DNA of 64,000 nucleotides, taken from IMG/VR virus record IMGVR_UViG_3300000271_000010, positions 8,958-72,957 of that record; one strand, 5' to 3'. Position 1 is the first letter of the stretch; every line of letters starts with the position of its first letter. Both the position numbers and the translations under genes were made by a program. Source of the stretch: a virus. Below are positions 8,262-63,274 of the stretch, in pieces. A model generated the notes under the pieces. That model was not told where the DNA came from. It made no database searches and was given only the letters and a program-made list of their open reading frames with translations.

Positions 8262-9125
8262 TCAGTTTTTCCACTTAGAGTTTTTGCGATCCACCGCGTA
8301 GCTGGTGTTCATGATCCCAAGCTCGGGGTTGCCCCGATAGTGTGGTGGCACCAGAACGACCGAAACATTCTTGTAGCGTGGGTGAACGAGGAAACGCATG
8401 TGCGCGCGGACGAAGTGCAAGCACCGCTCGGGGCCGTCGCCTTGGCCTTGTGTGATTTTGATGTCGTGCTTGTCGATGTTCAGACGCACTTCATGGTGTG
8501 GGTGGTAGGGATACTTCCCACGCTTGAGCCGACGGGCATTGAGCCGGCCGAGATCGACTTCGCGCGTTCGGATCAGTTTAGGGGAGTTCATAAACGCCAG
8601 AAGGGAAAGCAACAGAGGCTTAACCACATTCATGAAAGGAATCATTTGCGCTTGGTGTAATAAGGGGTCAGAAGCAACTGTAACACTTGGTTCAATCAGA
8701 TTGAACATTTCCCTCGTCACCATATCAACACCCATGCGCTCTGCTCGAATCCGGGCGACGTGGTGAAGGTCACAGAATTGCATGTGGTAGTTTTCCAGAT
8801 TCACCGATATAGGTATGTAAGCTATTTCATCGCCATTTTTCCAATCGATGATAATCAGAGCGTGTCCAGATACAACACTTCTGTTGTCCCCATGGAAATA
8901 GACGCCGAAATCTGCACCAGAGAATCCAAACTCCATCCAAGTATCAAAGTCAGGCCAGCAGGTATATTTAGATATTTCCCGCATCTTCTTTTCGCTAGCG
9001 GTTTTGAGTAGGTCCGATGCCGCTGAAACAACGTCTGTATGGATCACAACTTTGCGCGATCCTTCCATCAGTTTTATCAAAAGACCATCGTCCTTTGTCA
9101 TTTCGGTTAGGCGGTCAGCAAACAT
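8262..9125 (-). CDS. Hypothetical protein (287 aa)
   Basis: SD AGGAGA; C-terminal HFVRAHMR...PPHYRG motif; visibly more AT-rich than flanks. Confidence 0.75.
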   Translation of the reverse strand: MFADRLTEMTKDDGLLIKLMEGSRKVVIHTDVVSAASDLLKTASEKKMREISKYTCWPDFDTWMEFGFSGADFGVYFHGDNRSVVSGHALIIIDWKNGDEIAYIPISVNLENYHMQFCDLHHVARIRAERMGVDMVTREMFNLIEPSVTVASDPLLHQAQMIPFMNVVKPLLLSLLAFMNSPKLIRTREVDLGRLNARRLKRGKYPYHPHHEVRLNIDKHDIKITQGQGDGPERCLHFVRAHMRFLVHPRYKNVSVVLVPPHYRGNPELGIMNTSYAVDRKNSKWKN

Positions 9126-50292: not shown

Positions 50293-50591
50293 AATTCCTC
50301 CATCAGCTTCTGCCGCACCCACGCGAGGCGCTTCGGGTTTTCGTGAACCAGACGGAGATCGGATTCTTCGAAATAATCCCGTTTACCGTTGAAAGGCATA
50401 TCGCAATCATGCTCGAACTCCTCCATGAAGAGTTCTTCCAGTTCGTAAGAGATAGCTGCCGAACGCTTGCGAGCATGAAAACACAGCCCAAACCGACGGC
50501 TGAAACCGCCCGCGTAGACATCCCCTTCGGGAGCCCCGCTGGTAGCCCAGTTGTGCCAGTCGGCGAGGAAGGTGCTGAGAGCGGGGCTCAT
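50289..50591 (-). CDS. Hypothetical protein
   Basis: ATGA overlap. Confidence 0.65.
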   Translation of the reverse strand: MSPALSTFLADWHNWATSGAPEGDVYAGGFSRRFGLCFHARKRSAAISYELEELFMEEFEHDCDMPFNGKRDYFEESDLRLVHENPKRLAWVRQKLMEEL

Positions 50592-50992
50592 GCGCCGACG
50601 CTCTCGGGCGGCGTGTAAATCAGGCTGAATTGTCGAGCAACCTTCATCGCACCATTTTCCACCTCAGGGAGATAACCATCAGGGTTGTTGATGTCGCACT
50701 GGATGCTGGGGAAGTCGTGTAATTCCTTCTGACAGGTCCGCAGGAATCCTACGTCCACGGAGCGGACCACACCTAGTGTCTCCGCAATCTCTTCGAAGCA
50801 GCTACCATCCTCGAATTTCGGCTGATAGATTTCGTCCGGGATGAGAATGCCGACAGCGCATTTGAGTCCGCCGGGAGTGCGATACCGGCAAGAACCAAAC
50901 TCGGTCGTCGCGGGGACTTGCTGTTCCCGGAGGTGTTTCAACATGGTGTCAAACACCTTCTGGCGGTCGAAATTAGCGAGGGGGCCGGTCAT
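50588..50992 (-). CDS. Family A paralog (A4)
   Basis: QKVFDTMLKHLREQ..P...CRYR...GLKCAVGILIPD...FL...Q..LHD. Confidence 0.8.
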   Translation of the reverse strand: MTGPLANFDRQKVFDTMLKHLREQQVPATTEFGSCRYRTPGGLKCAVGILIPDEIYQPKFEDGSCFEEIAETLGVVRSVDVGFLRTCQKELHDFPSIQCDINNPDGYLPEVENGAMKVARQFSLIYTPPESVGA

Positions 50993-52706: not shown

Positions 52707-53344
52707 GCTGCTTCCCCTTTGTATCGTGACTGGGTTGTCTTATATTGGGCTTCCAGTTCGTTCACGGCTTCCATCATGATGCCGATCGTGACCTTACGAT
52801 AGTCTGGGAATGTTCGGGAAAAGCCAGCCCGCTCTTCGTCGGTGTCGGCCCAGCGAACACACATTCGCAAGGTAACCTCGTCGCCGTTGAACTGACAGTC
52901 CATGACGCGCATACCGGTCTTGCCGTGCTTCCCTGCTGTCTTGTGCCAGCGCTTCTGGAAAGCGAATTGGCGATCCGTCCAGTGATAGCGCTCACGGATA
53001 TCGCCTCGCGGCATGAAGGACAGGCCAACGTTCGACCACCAACAAAGTGAACCGTCGTCGAGGCTTTCGATCAGGTAGCGCCTGCTATAGCGGCTCCCTT
53101 CTTCGATCTCACGTAGCCAGCCGATGTTCCACTTCGATGGTGCAGCGGATTCGAGGATCACCAAGTCACCAACTTGGACGGGATGGTCATCATCCAAGAA
53201 GTCGCTTGGGACGAAGCCCTTGGTCGAGGGTGTGTTGCGTCCGTATTGCTTGTCGGGTTCCCAGTTGCGCGTGATGTAGAACGACAGGATGTCGCTCATG
53301 ATCAAGGTCCGGGCCCGGTTGCGGTCGAAGGGTTTGGTCTTCAT
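52703..53344 (-). CDS. Hypothetical protein
   Basis: ATGA overlap. Confidence 0.7.
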   Translation of the reverse strand: MKTKPFDRNRARTLIMSDILSFYITRNWEPDKQYGRNTPSTKGFVPSDFLDDDHPVQVGDLVILESAAPSKWNIGWLREIEEGSRYSRRYLIESLDDGSLCWWSNVGLSFMPRGDIRERYHWTDRQFAFQKRWHKTAGKHGKTGMRVMDCQFNGDEVTLRMCVRWADTDEERAGFSRTFPDYRKVTIGIMMEAVNELEAQYKTTQSRYKGEAA

Positions 53345-53748
53345 TGTGCGGGCTCCGGTGCTGTGTAGGTCAGGCTAAATTGCATCGCCAAGTTACGTGC
53401 GCTTCTCTCGACAGCGTTAAGGAACGAATCCTCACCTACCATGCGTGCAATGCCGGCCGGCTCGTCGTGAAGACGGTTTTGAGCGGCAGTCAAGAACTCC
53501 TTGAGGTCCGTGTCCCAGATCGAAAGCTGGTCAAGCACTACACTGGTGGCTTCCTTCTCGAAGCCCGGCTTGTAAAGCTCATCAGGGATGAGGGCACCAA
53601 GCGCGCATTTGAGACCATCTTCGGTTCGGTAGAGACACTTGTCGATATGATCGAGACGGGCAACCGCCGGCTTGCCTTGCTGGCGCATGTGACCGAGCAT
53701 GGCGTCGAAGAGCTTCTGCTTATCTCGCTCGTAGATTGTGATGTTCAT
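53341..53748 (-). CDS. Family A paralog (A3)
   Basis: QKLFDAMLGHMRQQGKP...CLYR..DGLKCALGALIPD...FL..AQ..LHD. Confidence 0.8.
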   Translation of the reverse strand: MNITIYERDKQKLFDAMLGHMRQQGKPAVARLDHIDKCLYRTEDGLKCALGALIPDELYKPGFEKEATSVVLDQLSIWDTDLKEFLTAAQNRLHDEPAGIARMVGEDSFLNAVERSARNLAMQFSLTYTAPEPAQ

Positions 53749-54158
53749 GCAGGCTCTCCGATCGGCGGGGTATAGATCAGGTTGTAGGTTACAGCGAGGT
53801 GCTTTGCCCCTATTTCCATACACTGTAAGAACGAGCGTTCATTCTGGAAAACAGGGGTTGCCGGGGCGTCGTGCAGGGTGTTTTGTGCGTCGCACAGAAA
53901 ATCGAGGAGTTCATCATCGACATCAAAACCGAGGTCGTCAAAGATAGAACCCAAGGAATGACATTCCAGTTGTGGATCGTATTGATCATCAGGGATCAAC
54001 GCGCCCACCGCACACGCGCATCCATCAACCCCACGATAAGCGCATACCAAGGTTCCAGACGGTAGGGTGATTTGCGAAGGCTTACCTTGCCGGCGCAGGT
54101 GGTTCACCATCGTGTCGAAGGCTTCCTGTATGGTGTAGCTGGTCATCGAGCGACTCAT
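53745..54158 (-). CDS. Family A paralog (A2)
   Basis: QEAFDTMVNHLRRQGKP...CAYR..DG..CAVGALIPD...FL..AQ..LHD. Confidence 0.8.
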   Translation of the reverse strand: MSRSMTSYTIQEAFDTMVNHLRRQGKPSQITLPSGTLVCAYRGVDGCACAVGALIPDDQYDPQLECHSLGSIFDDLGFDVDDELLDFLCDAQNTLHDAPATPVFQNERSFLQCMEIGAKHLAVTYNLIYTPPIGEPA

Positions 54159-54883
54159 TGTGTGGTCTCCGGGGTGATATAGAGGTTACCATAATTGGCA
54201 GGGCGAGGCGGAATGTCCGCAGGCGTCGCAAAGCCAAACATGGGTAAGAAGAACGGCTTTTGATCACGCTCTACCATAAGTTTGTGCCCTTGAATTTCAG
54301 ACGAAGCACCCTCCGCAGCCTCCCGTGCAGCGGGCCACAAAGCGCCTCCCGAAGCATCCCGTGCAGAACCTCCCGCAGCAGACCATGCTGCACGCGCCGA
54401 AGCTTCTCCCACAGCCTCCCGTGCGGCATTTCGTGCCGAAGATACTACACCTACAACATCCCGTGCGGCATTCCGTGCATCAATTACATTACGCCACTCA
54501 CCTGCGGTGTAGTTATCGAACAGCCACCACATATCCAGAAGCTTGTTCCACTGATTTCCCAGCACCTTACCGGGATCGGTCAGAACAATCGACGGAATGC
54601 CATCAGGTTTGTCATTAACGATGCGTAAAAGGATCGAATGGGCGCGGCTGATATTCAATTTTTTCGCCGAAAGCATGTCGAGGTGCGTCTGATACATCTT
54701 GGCGATTTCTTGTGCCGTCGCCTCTCTGGTCAGGAAGAGAACCTGAGCCTGCGCACACATACAGCCCATGTTTTTCGGGTTCGCCGCATATGCATCCAAA
54801 TCAATTTTACCTCCTTTGTAAGGCGTGCCGTCGTCTCTATCCCAACCCGAAATAATTTCTTGGATGGTCTGTGGGGCGGTCAT
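54155..54883 (-). CDS. Hypothetical protein with CMCAQ motif and Ala-rich AR(N/D/E)A repeats
   Basis: GCMCAQAQVL...LRIVND; ARNAARD..ARNAAREA..AAWSAA..ARDA..AAREA. Confidence 0.7.
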   Translation of the reverse strand: MTAPQTIQEIISGWDRDDGTPYKGGKIDLDAYAANPKNMGCMCAQAQVLFLTREATAQEIAKMYQTHLDMLSAKKLNISRAHSILLRIVNDKPDGIPSIVLTDPGKVLGNQWNKLLDMWWLFDNYTAGEWRNVIDARNAARDVVGVVSSARNAAREAVGEASARAAWSAAGGSARDASGGALWPAAREAAEGASSEIQGHKLMVERDQKPFFLPMFGFATPADIPPRPANYGNLYITPETTQ

Positions 54884-55281
54884 TAGACGTTCTCCACAGC
54901 GGCAGCCGGGGCGTAGTGAAGACAGTAGCGCCGCGCGATCTCACGAGCGCCGGTCTCGACCGATGGTAGGTAGTCCCCCAATTTTCCCTGTGCCGGCTGG
55001 TCATGCATGATCAACTGCGCATCGCGAAGGAACTCAGCGGTGGTGTCGCTACCTCCCAGTCGTTCCACCACTGCGTAAGGCCCCATCCCGCAGTCGAAGT
55101 CCGGTTCGTAGAACTCGTCCGGGATCAGAGCGCCGACAGCGCACTTGAGACCAGTGCCGGTCCGGTAGCGGCAGAAGCCGGAGTCCGCCAAGGCAGGAAA
55201 ACGCTGCTTGCGGAGGTGAGCCAGCATGGTGTCGAAGGCCGCTTGGTAGTTGAGGTTGTGGAAAGGTTTGGGGGCATTCAT
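54883..55281 (-). CDS. Family A paralog (A1)
   Basis: QAAFDTMLAHLRKQ..P...CRYR...GLKCAVGALIPD...FL..AQ..MHD; first gene after cassette. Confidence 0.8.
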   Translation of the reverse strand: MNAPKPFHNLNYQAAFDTMLAHLRKQRFPALADSGFCRYRTGTGLKCAVGALIPDEFYEPDFDCGMGPYAVVERLGGSDTTAEFLRDAQLIMHDQPAQGKLGDYLPSVETGAREIARRYCLHYAPAAAVENV

Positions 55282-55311: not shown

Positions 55312-55340
55312 CGGATAGGATAATTCTTCCTAGTCGTCAA
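55312..55340 (-). promoter_or_regulatory. Repeated boxed promoter cassette
   Basis: TTGACG-ACTA-GGAAGAATTATCC-TATCC; overlaps upstream stop. Confidence 0.85.
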
Positions 55341-59745: not shown

Positions 59746-60110
59746 GCGCCCGGTGCCAGCATATACTTGGACGCGATGCAAATAACGCTTTCCCAGTCGG
59801 AGTTGTCGAAATACTCTTGGATGGCGCGAGCGTCGGCTTCCTGTTCCTTGGGGATGATGAACGTCCCATCCATCTGGAGAGCTTTGACATCATCCTCACT
59901 TACCATCGGTCGGCCATAATCATCATAGGATTCCCGTGTGCAGCGCTCGTTTTCAAGTTCGAGCCGGAGGGCCAGTTCGTGGCGTTCTGCGGGTGGGATC
60001 AGCACTCCAATGATGCAGGGTGAACCGTAGTTGCAAGACCCGACATGCGGACGTGCTTCTTCCAGAAGTTCCGGGGTGAGGTTGTGGAGATTGATGTGGA
60101 TGGGGTTCAT
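59742..60110 (-). CDS. Family C paralog (C2)
   Basis: INLHNLTPELLEEAR...CNY..PCIIGVLIP...IQEYFD.SDW..V...A.KY. Confidence 0.75.
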   Translation of the reverse strand: MNPIHINLHNLTPELLEEARPHVGSCNYGSPCIIGVLIPPAERHELALRLELENERCTRESYDDYGRPMVSEDDVKALQMDGTFIIPKEQEADARAIQEYFDNSDWESVICIASKYMLAPGA

Positions 60111-60310
60111 AAACCGATGTCCTTGCGATTGCGTGTGACGTGAAACTTGAAAGCATCCCCCACTTTCACCACCAGTTCAGCTATGCTGTTGGCATGGAAG
60201 CAGAAGTTGGGGCTCTCATTGCGCACAGCAAAATAGGTCCCGTCGTCGGCTTTCCGCACCTCAAACAGGTGGTGGGTATCGTGTTCGTAGACGATTGTGG
60301 TGTCAGCCAT
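60107..60310 (-). CDS. Small protein, possibly HicB-like N-terminal fold
   Basis: DDGTYFAV...FHANSIAELVVKVGDA; SD GAGGAG. Confidence 0.5.
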   Translation of the reverse strand: MADTTIVYEHDTHHLFEVRKADDGTYFAVRNESPNFCFHANSIAELVVKVGDAFKFHVTRNRKDIGL

Positions 60311-60446
60311 TTGACTGCTCCTCACATCCCTTGCAGCCGGGATGGCGATACGGTTCTCGCTCTTCGCCGACCGGCTGGGTGCCAGTGTGCGAGCCGACGA
60401 GGGTGAATTGGTAGTTGTCGCGTGGGCGCGTGATGATACGGCTCAT
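60303..60446 (-). CDS. 47-aa peptide
   Basis: ATGA overlap with B6 stop; ends CKGC. Confidence 0.45.
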   Translation of the reverse strand: MSRIITRPRDNYQFTLVGSHTGTQPVGEEREPYRHPGCKGCEEQSNG

Positions 60447-60850
60447 GTTGCTACCTTCGCGAACAGATAAGGAGCCTCGCCGGCTTCTTGAGCAGTGGCG
60501 TTTTCCGGTAGACCATGTGCCATCAGGTAACGAATACGCTTCGCTGCACCGTGCGGTGTGTTATCTACCTCAGACCAGTGACCAGAGAAGCACCAGCACC
60601 ACTCAAGATAAGGGAGTTGGAAGACCCGCTCCGAATATGAATCCCAGTCTTCTCCCTTGTATCCCGGTAAGCCGGCTGCTGGTCCGTGACCGACGGCGCA
60701 AGCTACCGTTCCGCAAGTAAAGTTAGTGGCTTTTTCTGGGAAATACCAATTGTCATCAATGGTGAAATACCAGTCCATCCCGAAGTGATTGTAATCTTCC
60801 GGGAGTTCTTCCAGATAGGAAGCCAGCTTCTCAAGGTTCTCGCGGTTCAT
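60443..60850 (-). CDS. Family B tandem paralog (B6)
   Basis: MNRENLEKLASYLE...HFGM...CGTVACAVGHGPAAG...WCF..HW..VDNTPHGAAKRIR. Confidence 0.9.
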   Translation of the reverse strand: MNRENLEKLASYLEELPEDYNHFGMDWYFTIDDNWYFPEKATNFTCGTVACAVGHGPAAGLPGYKGEDWDSYSERVFQLPYLEWCWCFSGHWSEVDNTPHGAAKRIRYLMAHGLPENATAQEAGEAPYLFAKVAT

Positions 60851-61260
60851 GCTGTTTCCTTCGCGAACATATAAGGCGCTTCACCCCAGCACTGCTCATA
60901 AGCATCTTCTGGCAGACCATACTTCAACATATAGCGGATGCGCTTAGCAGCCCCTTGTGGTGTGTCGTCGATCACAGCCCAAGCACCAGAGAAACACCAT
61001 CTTTCTTGGCTAGTGGATAAATCGAATGCCCGGCGCGCGTAACCTACCCAGTTCTCGTGACCTGACGGCTCAATTCCAGCAGCAGGTCCGTGGCCGACAG
61101 CACAAGCAACCGTTCCGCACTCGCCGGCGAGCGGTGATCGATCAACATAGAAAATCACCCCGTTGTTGTTTTTGAAATAAGAAGACATCCCGAAGTGTTC
61201 ATAATCTTCCGGGAGTTCTTCCAGATAGGAAGCCAGCTTCTCAAGGTTCTCGCGGTTCAT
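60847..61260 (-). CDS. Family B tandem paralog (B5)
   Basis: Same scaffold; ATGA overlap. Confidence 0.9.
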   Translation of the reverse strand: MNRENLEKLASYLEELPEDYEHFGMSSYFKNNNGVIFYVDRSPLAGECGTVACAVGHGPAAGIEPSGHENWVGYARRAFDLSTSQERWCFSGAWAVIDDTPQGAAKRIRYMLKYGLPEDAYEQCWGEAPYMFAKETA

Positions 61261-61670
61261 GCTGTTTCCTTCGCGAAGATGTAGGGAGCCTTGCCGGTCA
61301 TTTGCTTGCTGGAATCCTCCGGAAGACCGTGTTCAAGGAGATAGCGAATGCGCTTGGCCGCACCGTGTGGTGTGTTGTCCACCCTTACCCAATCACCGGC
61401 GAAACACCAATGCCATTCAGGGACGCGCAGATCGAAAGCCAGTGCCACGTAATCGGACCACCAAACCACCCCCGGAATTAGGATGCCGGCTGCTGGTCCG
61501 TGACCGGCCGCGCACGCTACCGTTCCACAAGCACCGGCGAGAGGTGCGGAAAACACCGGTTTGTGGAAGCCGTCCGCTCCTTTGAAATAATTATTCATCC
61601 CGAAGTGTTGGTAATCTTCCGGGAGTTGTTCCAGATAAGAGGCGAGCATTGTGAGATTGGCGCGGTTCAT
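61257..61670 (-). CDS. Family B tandem paralog (B4)
   Basis: Same scaffold; ATGA overlap. Confidence 0.9.
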   Translation of the reverse strand: MNRANLTMLASYLEQLPEDYQHFGMNNYFKGADGFHKPVFSAPLAGACGTVACAAGHGPAAGILIPGVVWWSDYVALAFDLRVPEWHWCFAGDWVRVDNTPHGAAKRIRYLLEHGLPEDSSKQMTGKAPYIFAKETA

Positions 61671-62086
61671 GCTGCTGTCTCCTTTGCGAACATATAAGGT
61701 GCATAGCCCGTCCGCTGTTTGTAGCCGTCCGCTGGGACACCGTGTTCGAGCATGTGGCGGATGCGCTTGGCAGCACCGTGCGGGGTGTTATCCGTCTGAG
61801 ACCAACGCGAAGAAAAGCACCACGACCATTCGGTGGTTGTCATTGGGAACACCCGATCCGAATACTCGTCCCAATTCTCGTAACCGGTCGGCGCGATTCC
61901 AGCCGCCGGTCCGTGGCCGATTGCGCACGCTACCGTGCCGCAGTTCCCAAGACCGGTGGCAGCGTAGGGCTTAGGATGATGTTCTTCTTCGTTGTTGCTG
62001 AAATAACTCGCCATTTCGAAGTGCTGATAGTCAGCCGGGAGCCCTTCCAGATAGGAAGCCAGCTTCTCAAGGTTCTCGCGGTTCAT
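61667..62086 (-). CDS. Family B tandem paralog (B3)
   Basis: Same scaffold; ATG 62086 after AGGAGA. Confidence 0.9.
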   Translation of the reverse strand: MNRENLEKLASYLEGLPADYQHFEMASYFSNNEEEHHPKPYAATGLGNCGTVACAIGHGPAAGIAPTGYENWDEYSDRVFPMTTTEWSWCFSSRWSQTDNTPHGAAKRIRHMLEHGVPADGYKQRTGYAPYMFAKETAA

Positions 62087-62502
62087 GCTACTGTCTCCTG
62101 TGCGAAGAGGTAAGGTGACATCCCCCAGCACTGCTCGATGGGGTCTTCTGGCAAGCCATGTTCGAGGAGATGTCGGATGCGCTTTGCAGCACCTTGTGAG
62201 GTATCATCCACATGCATCCAATCACCGTCGAAGCACCACAACCATTGGTCATGATTCAGATCGAAAGCGCGCTCAGCATAGGCGTTCCAACTCTCATTCC
62301 CATGCACAGCGGGGATACCGGCCGCCGGGCCGTGGCCGACCGCGCAAGCGACAGTGCCACAATCCCCAGCGATGGGGGCTGTGTCGGCATAGGAATAGAG
62401 ATGACCGTCTTGGCAAAGAAAGGATTGCATCCCGAAGTGCTGATAGTTAGTTGGGAGCCCTTCCAGATAGGAAGCCAGCTTCTCAAGGTTCTCGCGGTTC
62501 AT
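62083..62502 (-). CDS. Family B tandem paralog (B2)
   Basis: Same scaffold; ATGA overlap. Confidence 0.9.
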   Translation of the reverse strand: MNRENLEKLASYLEGLPTNYQHFGMQSFLCQDGHLYSYADTAPIAGDCGTVACAVGHGPAAGIPAVHGNESWNAYAERAFDLNHDQWLWCFDGDWMHVDDTSQGAAKRIRHLLEHGLPEDPIEQCWGMSPYLFAQETVA

Positions 62503-62918
62503 GCTGCTGTCTCCTGTGCGAACAGATAAGGGGCATCGCCCGCAAGCTGATCAACCAAATCAAAGGGGGCACCGTGTTCGAGCATATGCCGGATGCGCTT
62601 GGCAGCGCCGTGCGGGGTATTATCCACCTGCGACCAATTACCGTCGAAGCACCAGTAATGTTCACGGTGAGTCAGATCGAATACGCGTCGGGCATAATCA
62701 GACCACCATTCCAAACAGCCGAGAGGTGCGATACCCGCTGCTGGTCCGTGACCGACAGCGCAAGCGACAGTGCCGCAGGTGCCAGCCAGAGGAGCCTCGT
62801 CAGCATGATTGTGGTAAAACTCGTCATCTACCAAGTAGACATTCATATGGAAATGATTGTAGTCAACGGGCAGTGCTTCCAGATAGGACGCGAGCTTTTC
62901 GAGGTTGTCCCGGTTCAT
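62499..62918 (-). CDS. Family B tandem paralog (B1)
   Basis: Same scaffold; ATGA overlap. Confidence 0.9.
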   Translation of the reverse strand: MNRDNLEKLASYLEALPVDYNHFHMNVYLVDDEFYHNHADEAPLAGTCGTVACAVGHGPAAGIAPLGCLEWWSDYARRVFDLTHREHYWCFDGNWSQVDNTPHGAAKRIRHMLEHGAPFDLVDQLAGDAPYLFAQETAA

Positions 62919-63245: not shown

Positions 63246-63274
63246 CAGGTAGGACAATTCTTCCTACTCGTCAA
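63246..63274 (-). promoter_or_regulatory. Repeated boxed promoter cassette
   Basis: TTGACG-AGTA-GGAAGAATTGTCC-TACCT. Confidence 0.85.

Follow-up and report, generated by a model that had tools for sequence, protein, structure and literature searches.

A head-to-tail array of six translationally coupled small-protein paralogs in a phage genome: an expanded, undescribed accessory gene family

The window analysed here, a stretch of 64,000 nucleotides of viral DNA (IMG/VR record IMGVR_UViG_3300000271_000010, positions 8,958 to 72,957), belongs to a virus record of 132,380 bp with an estimated completeness of 78%. Positions 60443-62918 of the window are filled by six complete open reading frames (ORFs), which lie head to tail on the minus strand and encode paralogs of a small-protein family that was named B. 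In the order of transcription, these are B1 (62499-62918, 139 amino acids (aa)), B2 (62083-62502, 139 aa), B3 (61667-62086, 139 aa; its start codon is the ATG at 62086 and not a GTG upstream of it), B4 (61257-61670, 137 aa), B5 (60847-61260, 137 aa) and B6 (60443-60850, 135 aa). All five B-B junctions have the sequence GCATGA, in which stop and start codon overlap by 4 bp, and a GGAGA or GGAAA is found 7-9 nt upstream; the junctions read ...GGAGACAGC(A/T)GCATGA... or ...GGAAACAGCATGA..., and the Shine-Dalgarno sequence of each downstream B gene sits within the tail of the preceding gene. An initial annotation of this DNA had described six genes of 135-139 aa that are joined by ATGA overlaps and whose Shine-Dalgarno sequences are encoded by the tail of the previous gene, and inspection of all six ORFs and all five junctions verified this description.

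The translational coupling extends in both directions beyond the array. Upstream, the stop codon of C1 (62915-63220, minus strand, 101 aa), a member of a second small-protein family (C) and the first gene of the transcription unit, overlaps the start codon of B1 in an ATGA. Downstream, the ATG of a 47-aa ORF (60303-60446, minus strand) overlaps the stop codon of B6 in the same way as is found between the genes of the array. This ORF, a putative gene or remnant, matches no family, and the same holds for a 72-aa ORF (60107-60325, minus strand) between the array and C2 (59742-60110, minus strand, 122 aa); C1 and C2, both of family C, bracket the B array. A promoter-like cassette with the sequence TTGACG-N5-GGA-N7-TCC is located at 63252-63274 on the minus strand, 32 nt upstream of the start codon of C1. 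The cassette TTGAC-N5-GGA-N7-TCC is present in 15 copies at positions 6895-63274 of the window, all of them on the minus strand; 1.6 copies were expected and no shuffle reached 15, which confirmed a phage-wide regulon that had been noted separately in the initial annotation. Since the next cassette downstream of the array is found only at 55318, the array heads a transcription unit of ~8 kb. All six B proteins would stem from a single message that is proximal to the promoter and translated in a coupled manner.

Exact repeats of 46-76 bp, as they occur at the junctions of the array (see below), break de Bruijn unitigs, and the array could in principle have been produced by collapse or expansion of copies during assembly. 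When the biofilm metagenome from which the DNA stems was independently assembled into unitigs, the breaks indeed fell at the exact junction repeats, but nowhere else, and the depth over the 46-47-bp junction core was ~4x that of the flanks. Every part of the array was recovered at 100% identity and with even, single-copy depth; the unitigs establish the parts of the array and not the order of the copies. Given this coverage over its full length, the array is real. Furthermore, the copies differ from each other at 33-39% of their nucleotides and related arrays are present in other samples. An assembly artefact, which the initial annotation had already held to be unlikely, has a negligible probability.

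The number of B copies is not fixed among close relatives of the phage. It amounts to zero in the complete genome of Erythrobacter phage XM05, which is the cultured phage most closely related to that of the window, one in L004, two in L002, a complete relative of 176.5 kb, six in the window and seven in L001. Among ~50 unrelated IMG/VR loci, most have one B copy and about a dozen have two to four. In the syntenic stretch of XM05 (25.6 kb, PV416404.1 85967-111571, L062), no gene of A, C or DUF6197, the small-protein families that recur next to B (see below), was found either; the syntenic place is filled by unrelated genes of 60-120 aa. The array is an expanded accessory gene family, and the range of copy numbers suggests a host-interaction gene set.

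The six proteins of the window align nearly without gaps and have pairwise identities of 55-63% (61-67% at the nucleotide level). They do not form a clade, and several of them are closer to proteins of other phages than to each other: the nearest relative of B1 is L002_c1 (67%), B2 pairs with P0007, which stems from a different sample (76% identity, support 99/98), and B4 groups with P0011 (support 97/80). Since their nearest kin lie in other phages, the B copies are old lineages which were retained or exchanged between phages. L001, by contrast, shows a lineage-specific expansion. Unlike the copies themselves, the junctions are young and homogenised. A repeat of 76 bp is exactly shared by the B5/B6 junction (60792-60867) and the B4/B5 junction (61202-61277), a repeat of 53 bp is exactly shared by the B2/B3 junction (62037-62089) and the B1/B2 junction (62453-62505), and a core of 46-47 bp recurs at four junctions. 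Over their first 75 nt, B5 and B6 share 96% identity, and the first 25 codons have a lower synonymous divergence (dS of 0.67) with a nucleotide identity of up to 96%. Such repeats are the obvious substrate for unequal crossing-over, by which copies are gained and lost at the nearly identical junctions; this is borne out by the range of copy numbers. A contig of 610 bp from an unrelated study of 2024 joins a B4-like stretch (~95%) to a B1-like stretch (corresponding to window 61174-61529 and 62578-62636) and points to a relative whose array is mosaic or has another arrangement.

Family B is undescribed. Scans against Pfam, PHROG, NCBIfam and PADLOC gave no match for the six copies or for 54 relatives, in line with the initial annotation, which had recognised no family, and distant B copies such as those of the cultured Agrobacterium phage OLIVR5 had no PHROG either. 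At the DNA level, the array had no match among the phages of GenBank, and nothing relevant was found in literature searches on paralog arrays. Nevertheless, the family is large: a word-indexed search revealed 1,181 hits, and a full HMMER scan with the family B profile 3,213 clusters at 50% identity (E ≤ 1e-3). Hits of known source are phage contigs and the family is almost entirely phage-borne. Only nine GenBank phages have a B copy, annotated as hypothetical in every case, and a pattern scan found six bacterial loci among 185,579 species (Kordiimonas, Sphingopyxis, Sphingomonas, Siphonobacter), which are presumed to be prophages. Longer relatives are recurrent B-B self-fusions or have unannotated extensions; a fusion of B to a known domain was not found among the longer proteins. 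The proteins of family B are acidic with a median isoelectric point of 5.0 and do not have a hydrophobic N-terminus, and each B gene encodes a soluble, acidic, mostly helical protein of ~15 kDa.

A model of B was calculated with AlphaFold2 from a 54-sequence alignment; it had a predicted local distance difference test score (pLDDT) of 92.3 and a predicted template modelling score (pTM) of 0.87. The model starts with an N-terminal helix (residues 3-15) and an irregular, hairpin-like region (22-47), followed by a short strand and a helix which carry the motif C48-G-T-V-A-C53-A-V-G-H57-G-P, and by five more helices. The predicted fold is without a solved relative. A Foldseek search of the model against the PDB had a best E-value of 1.4, with no chain at E ≤ 1, VIA gave a best Z of 3.2 against 48,161 representatives, which is far below the noise level quoted by VIA, and a sequence search of the PDB with the family B profile returned chance rows only (E ≥ 0.13). 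Neither of the two fold searches matched B to a structural protein or to another known fold, which supports the reading of the initial annotation. In AlphaFold-DB, BFVD and the ESM Atlas, the model matched unnamed, mostly viral clusters, the one named exception being a DUF2591 cluster.

Conservation across the family was counted over 130 diverse members. L9, L13, F23, C48, C53, G56, F91, W95, D99, G104 and R108 were found in 130 of 130, and N5, M25, H57, G58, P59, G62, W72, Y75, W89, T101, A105, I109 and P118 were conserved in at least 90% of the members. The motifs that had been listed as invariant are indeed so among the six copies of the window, but the proposed site of three conserved Cys and a His did not stand: position 90 is Cys in 83 of the 130 members, Leu or Met in 41 and otherwise Ala or Ile, and is a hydrophobic core position; H22 is not conserved; and position 57 is His in 119 members and Trp, Tyr, Asn or Ser in the remaining 11. 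Because C90, H22 and H57 vary, a three-Cys-plus-His site is not a feature of the family, in which C48 and C53 are the only invariant Cys residues. A Cys2-His(-Asp) site is possible. As candidate ligands of a four-ligand zinc site, C48 and C53 (130/130), H57 (119/130) and C90 (83/130) come into question, with D99 (130/130) as a possible fourth ligand. A complex prediction for B1 and B2 amounted to 0.01 against a mark of 0.32, a value at which the tool gives no verdict, neither for nor against binding; the recurrent natural B-B fusions keep the idea of hetero-oligomers open.

The conserved residues could mean that all B proteins have one and the same activity, catalytic, redox, metal-dependent or directed at a small molecule, which is located at Cys48/Cys53 (with His57, Asp99 and Arg108), and that additional copies provide dosage or modest tuning to substrates instead of the recognition of partners. 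This is favoured by the presence of C48, C53, G56, D99, G104 and R108 in every member and of H57 in nearly all of them, by the observation that most phages need one copy only and by the neighbouring families A, C and DUF6197, in each of which one Cys-x-x-Gly and one Asp are likewise invariant. However, the model matched no enzyme or ligand-binding fold, a classical four-ligand zinc site is not established in view of the replacements of H57 in 11 of 130 members and the variability of C90, and D99-N-T-P may merely cap the helix predicted at 102-115. In addition, copies that were kept for long at 55-63% identity are an unlikely dosage device. A single shared activity is the main alternative to the preferred reading (see below), possible but somewhat doubtful.

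Next to the conserved core, four variable segments had been described at about residues 26-47, 63-72, 81-88 and 119-130. These segments are real, with a mean entropy of 1.3-1.7 bits compared to 0.49 elsewhere. In the sequence, two of them are immediately adjacent to the invariant Cys/His motif, and among family members the loop between M25 and C48 is 13 to 36 residues long. In the array of the window, synonymous sites are saturated (dS ~1 to >3, several pairs not computable) and the overall ratio of nonsynonymous to synonymous divergence (dN/dS) is 0.09-0.44; due to this saturation, the dN/dS of the loops is uninformative there. Selection was measured in L001, where five copies form a young clade (support 100/99) with unsaturated dS values of 0.13-0.5, using segment boundaries which came from a different array, that of the window. 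The variable segments had a mean dN/dS of 1.18 (bootstrap 95% interval 0.72-2.04) and the rest of the protein a dN/dS of 0.24 (0.13-0.42). Furthermore, loop 26-45 of copy c2 of L001 shares 95% nucleotide identity with that of c7 and 43-50% with those of c1, c3 and c6; the C-terminal tail instead pairs c1 with c2 (90%). The dN/dS contrast and the mosaic copies of L001 show that the loops are released from the purifying selection under which the core stands, and that they are exchanged between copies as cassettes. Both observations support the interpretation of the initial annotation; positive selection is not supported, since the interval includes 1.

A dN/dS of the loops that is indistinguishable from 1 would also be expected if the array were a largely neutral by-product of recombination-prone junctions, that is, a set of harmless copies with drifting loops and no paralog-specific function. 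The agreement of the variable sites with those that vary throughout the family, the exact junction repeats, which promote unequal crossing-over, and the existence of XM05 as a close relative without family B are all compatible with this idea. On the other hand, the frames are intact and the full invariant core is present in all six copies of the window and all seven copies of L001, and the core has a dN/dS of 0.1-0.4 despite saturated synonymous sites. The copies were kept for long and have closer kin in other phages than within the array, and phage genomes are limited in size. A neutral origin of the array is, therefore, unlikely.

The large terminase of the phage shares 93.5% identity with its counterpart in Erythrobacter phage XM05 (152 kb) and ~69% with the large terminases encoded by Erythrobacter phage vB_EliS-L02 and by Sphingobium phage Lacusarx; judged by its sequence, the source phage is a CbK/Lacusarx-like siphovirus of Sphingomonadales. 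The large terminase of the seven-copy relative (L001:1-820) holds an intein with a LAGLIDADG endonuclease according to precomputed Pfam hits, and the 577-aa terminase of the window phage (L061:4271-6004) appears uninterrupted. The array is located on the reverse strand. An intergenic region and a 350-aa gene lie between it and the packaging genes, which are ~3 kb away and transcribed divergently. The 350-aa gene (L061:275-1327; window 63317 onwards) matches no family and lies immediately upstream of the promoter of the array; its position is conserved in L001, L002 and L004 and, as it appears, also in XM05 (XM05_140). Among the auxiliary genes on the reverse strand of the window are those for Nampt and an RNA ligase and an Nmnat-Nudix-like gene. 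The B array sits in the poorly conserved "miscellaneous" reverse-strand module which adjoins the packaging genes; this module was described as the least conserved one across these phages, and the terminase genes adjoin the terminal repeat in the phages of the same study (PMC5648845). Since the B loci of relatives are likewise found near the packaging module, its vicinity could point to an accessory role in the virion, in replication or in packaging. The array is, however, encoded on the opposite strand among small unannotated genes of the least conserved module, no structural-protein fold was matched and B is absent from XM05 despite a terminase of 93.5% identity. Such a role is very unlikely.

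In our preferred reading, the B proteins are a set of binders or inhibitors which act in the host cytoplasm and share one core, while the loops choose variable host partners, for example defence proteins; we assign a probability of roughly 0.4 to it. Such a set would correspond, in phages, to the accordion-like multigene families of large eukaryotic DNA viruses (see below). The conserved core is rigid and made up of the N-terminal helix, the motif C48-x4-C53-x2-G-H57, the aromatic residues W72, Y75, W89, F91 and W95, the stretch D99-N-T as well as G104 and R108. The loops on both sides of the Cys motif, variable in length and hypervariable in sequence, would provide the specificity. The initial annotation had proposed a co-translated repertoire of specificity variants, directed for example against allelic host defence proteins or signals. 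Its first part is consistent with the coupling of the genes, the variation in copy number and the swaps of loop cassettes, and a specificity repertoire is plausible on these grounds; the link to defence proteins or signalling molecules was not borne out. Several observations weigh against the preferred reading. Most phages have a single B copy, so that the basic function does not depend on a repertoire. The strict invariance of C48, C53, D99 and R108 suggests a common chemistry and would fit an enzyme or a binder of small molecules better than a scaffold for protein binding. The positions that vary among the six copies are those that vary family-wide (Spearman 0.76), and a dN/dS of the loops near 1 fits neutral drift as well as diversification. 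Finally, the timing of expression is deduced from the position of the array only. Host-partner binding by variable loops and a conserved activity at the Cys motif can be combined.

The only recurrent neighbours of B are the multi-copy small-protein families A, C and DUF6197 on the same strand, with which B is co-located at about half of 55 loci. Annotation of the genes neighbouring the array gave no Pfam or PHROG match and no informative family. Four genes of family A are encoded in the window (50588-50992, 53341-53745, 53745-54158 and 54883-55281); they match phrog_17693, the function of which is unknown. Arrays of four to six A copies are present in L022, L025 and L038, and in three phages (window, L001 and L004) the genes of C and B are translationally coupled. 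Families A and C are homologues of one another (hhalign probability 96%, E 3e-9), and both resemble B in that they are multi-copy families of a common operon or neighbourhood with a C-A/I-V/I-G motif. The AlphaFold model of A (pLDDT 92.7) shows, like that of B, an N-terminal helix, an irregular hairpin region, the Cys motif and helices, and the two models overlap in their BFVD hits, weak as these are. In hhalign, A and B align over 8-9 residues at the Cys motif only (E 0.004, probability 8-9%), and C against B reached a probability of 2.7%, compared to 96% for the control of C against A. A homology of B to A/C beyond the C-A-V-G motif was thus not found.

At 10 of ~55 loci, DUF6197 (PF19698) is encoded on the strand of B at a distance of no more than 6 kb; these neighbours were identified with E-values of 1e-11 to 1e-22 (43-79 bits) and match phrog_762 (function unknown). 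An extreme concentration is found in L011:1500-7400, where nine DUF6197, two A and two B genes are encoded on one strand within 6 kb. Like B, DUF6197 proteins have 100-140 aa, an N-terminal helix, a Cys followed by Cys-x-x-Gly and an invariant Asp before the C-terminal helix, and tandem arrays as well as self-fusions of two domains occur in either family. In Gordonia phages, DUF6197 is present in second copies and as two-domain fusions (PMC10586128), and literature searches on DUF6197 gave nothing beyond this genome announcement. B differs from DUF6197 by a C-x4-C-x3-H instead of a C-x-C and by an additional Trp-rich helical segment. None of 54 B members matched DUF6197 at E ≤ 1 (cut-off 24.6 bits) and no match was found in the whole phage genome. 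A relationship was not detected by hhalign either, which gave a probability of 0.2-0.3% over the N-terminal helix only; as the alignments were shallow (effective number of sequences 3.3-4.9), a very distant relationship is conceivable. The layout of N-terminal helix, invariant Cys-x-x-Gly and later invariant Asp is common to A, B, C and DUF6197, and we put forward the hypothesis of a common origin of the four families.

Taken one step further, B could be a new class of phage counter-defence proteins, in which an invariant pocket of Cys-x4-Cys-x3-His, Asp and Arg performs one chemistry (on a metal, an immune signal or as a thiol adduct) and swappable loops retarget the paralogs to allelic host proteins. 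B, A/C and DUF6197 would then be branches of one very large superfamily of small "Cys-x-x-Gly" phage proteins that is expanded and contracted in an accordion-like manner. We consider this extended proposal to be improbable. Independent of it, the family comprises thousands of sequence clusters, is nearly confined to phages and has no entry in Pfam, PHROGs, NCBIfam and PADLOC; its fold, which lacks a solved relative, was predicted with confidence. Three of its features resemble those of families in virus-host conflicts, namely the range of 0-7 copies, the exchange of loop cassettes and the recurring neighbourhood of other multi-copy small families. The natural series of 0, 1, 2, 6 and 7 copies, which includes XM05 as a cultured phage without B, is a ready experimental handle, and the function of B, once found, would probably illuminate the equally unstudied arrays of DUF6197 and A/C. 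The B array is a clearly delimited target that is accessible to experiments, and not a demonstrated new system.

Compared to known systems, the one named structural neighbour of B is the AlphaFold-DB cluster of DUF2591, which was matched with an E-value of 1e-3, a template modelling (TM) score of 0.55, a root-mean-square deviation of 6.2 and 19% identity, both structures being predicted. DUF2591, or NinX of phage P22 (PF10765), is like B a small phage accessory protein of unknown function, but it does not have the Cys and Asp motifs of B, and a relationship by sequence was not found (no Pfam match; hhalign probability 0.2% against P22 NinX). Anti-defence folds of the Tad1, Tad2, Acb2 and Ocr type were not among the matches of the model, for which there was no PDB chain at a Foldseek E ≤ 1 and no VIA Z > 3.2. 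Polyimmunity loci of polymorphic-toxin systems are arrays of immunity paralogs of the Imm/SUKH type and have in common with the B array that small, diverged cytoplasmic paralogs, which are thought to bind allelic partners, are encoded head to tail. The Foldseek rows of the B model for Imm26 (probability 0.69) and Imm1 (0.38), with TM scores of 0.40-0.44, are below a useful threshold. There is no toxin gene nearby, the neighbouring genes have no Pfam or PHROG match and the family is phage-borne.

As a phenomenon, the B array ranks among the tandem arrays of small accessory proteins in phages. Large eukaryotic DNA viruses have multigene families that behave as "genomic accordions", as exemplified by the amplification of K3L in poxviruses and by the MGF (multigene family) genes of African swine fever virus. 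They share with B the location of tandem paralogs near a genome end, the repeat-driven expansion and contraction with later diversification, and a copy number that differs between close relatives. The proteins are unrelated and the hosts belong to another domain, and the role against the host, which is inferred for B, was demonstrated for the accordions of eukaryotic viruses. The accordion-type behaviour itself is displayed by B, which has 0, 1, 2, 6 or 7 copies, junction repeats of 76 and 53 bp and mosaic copies.

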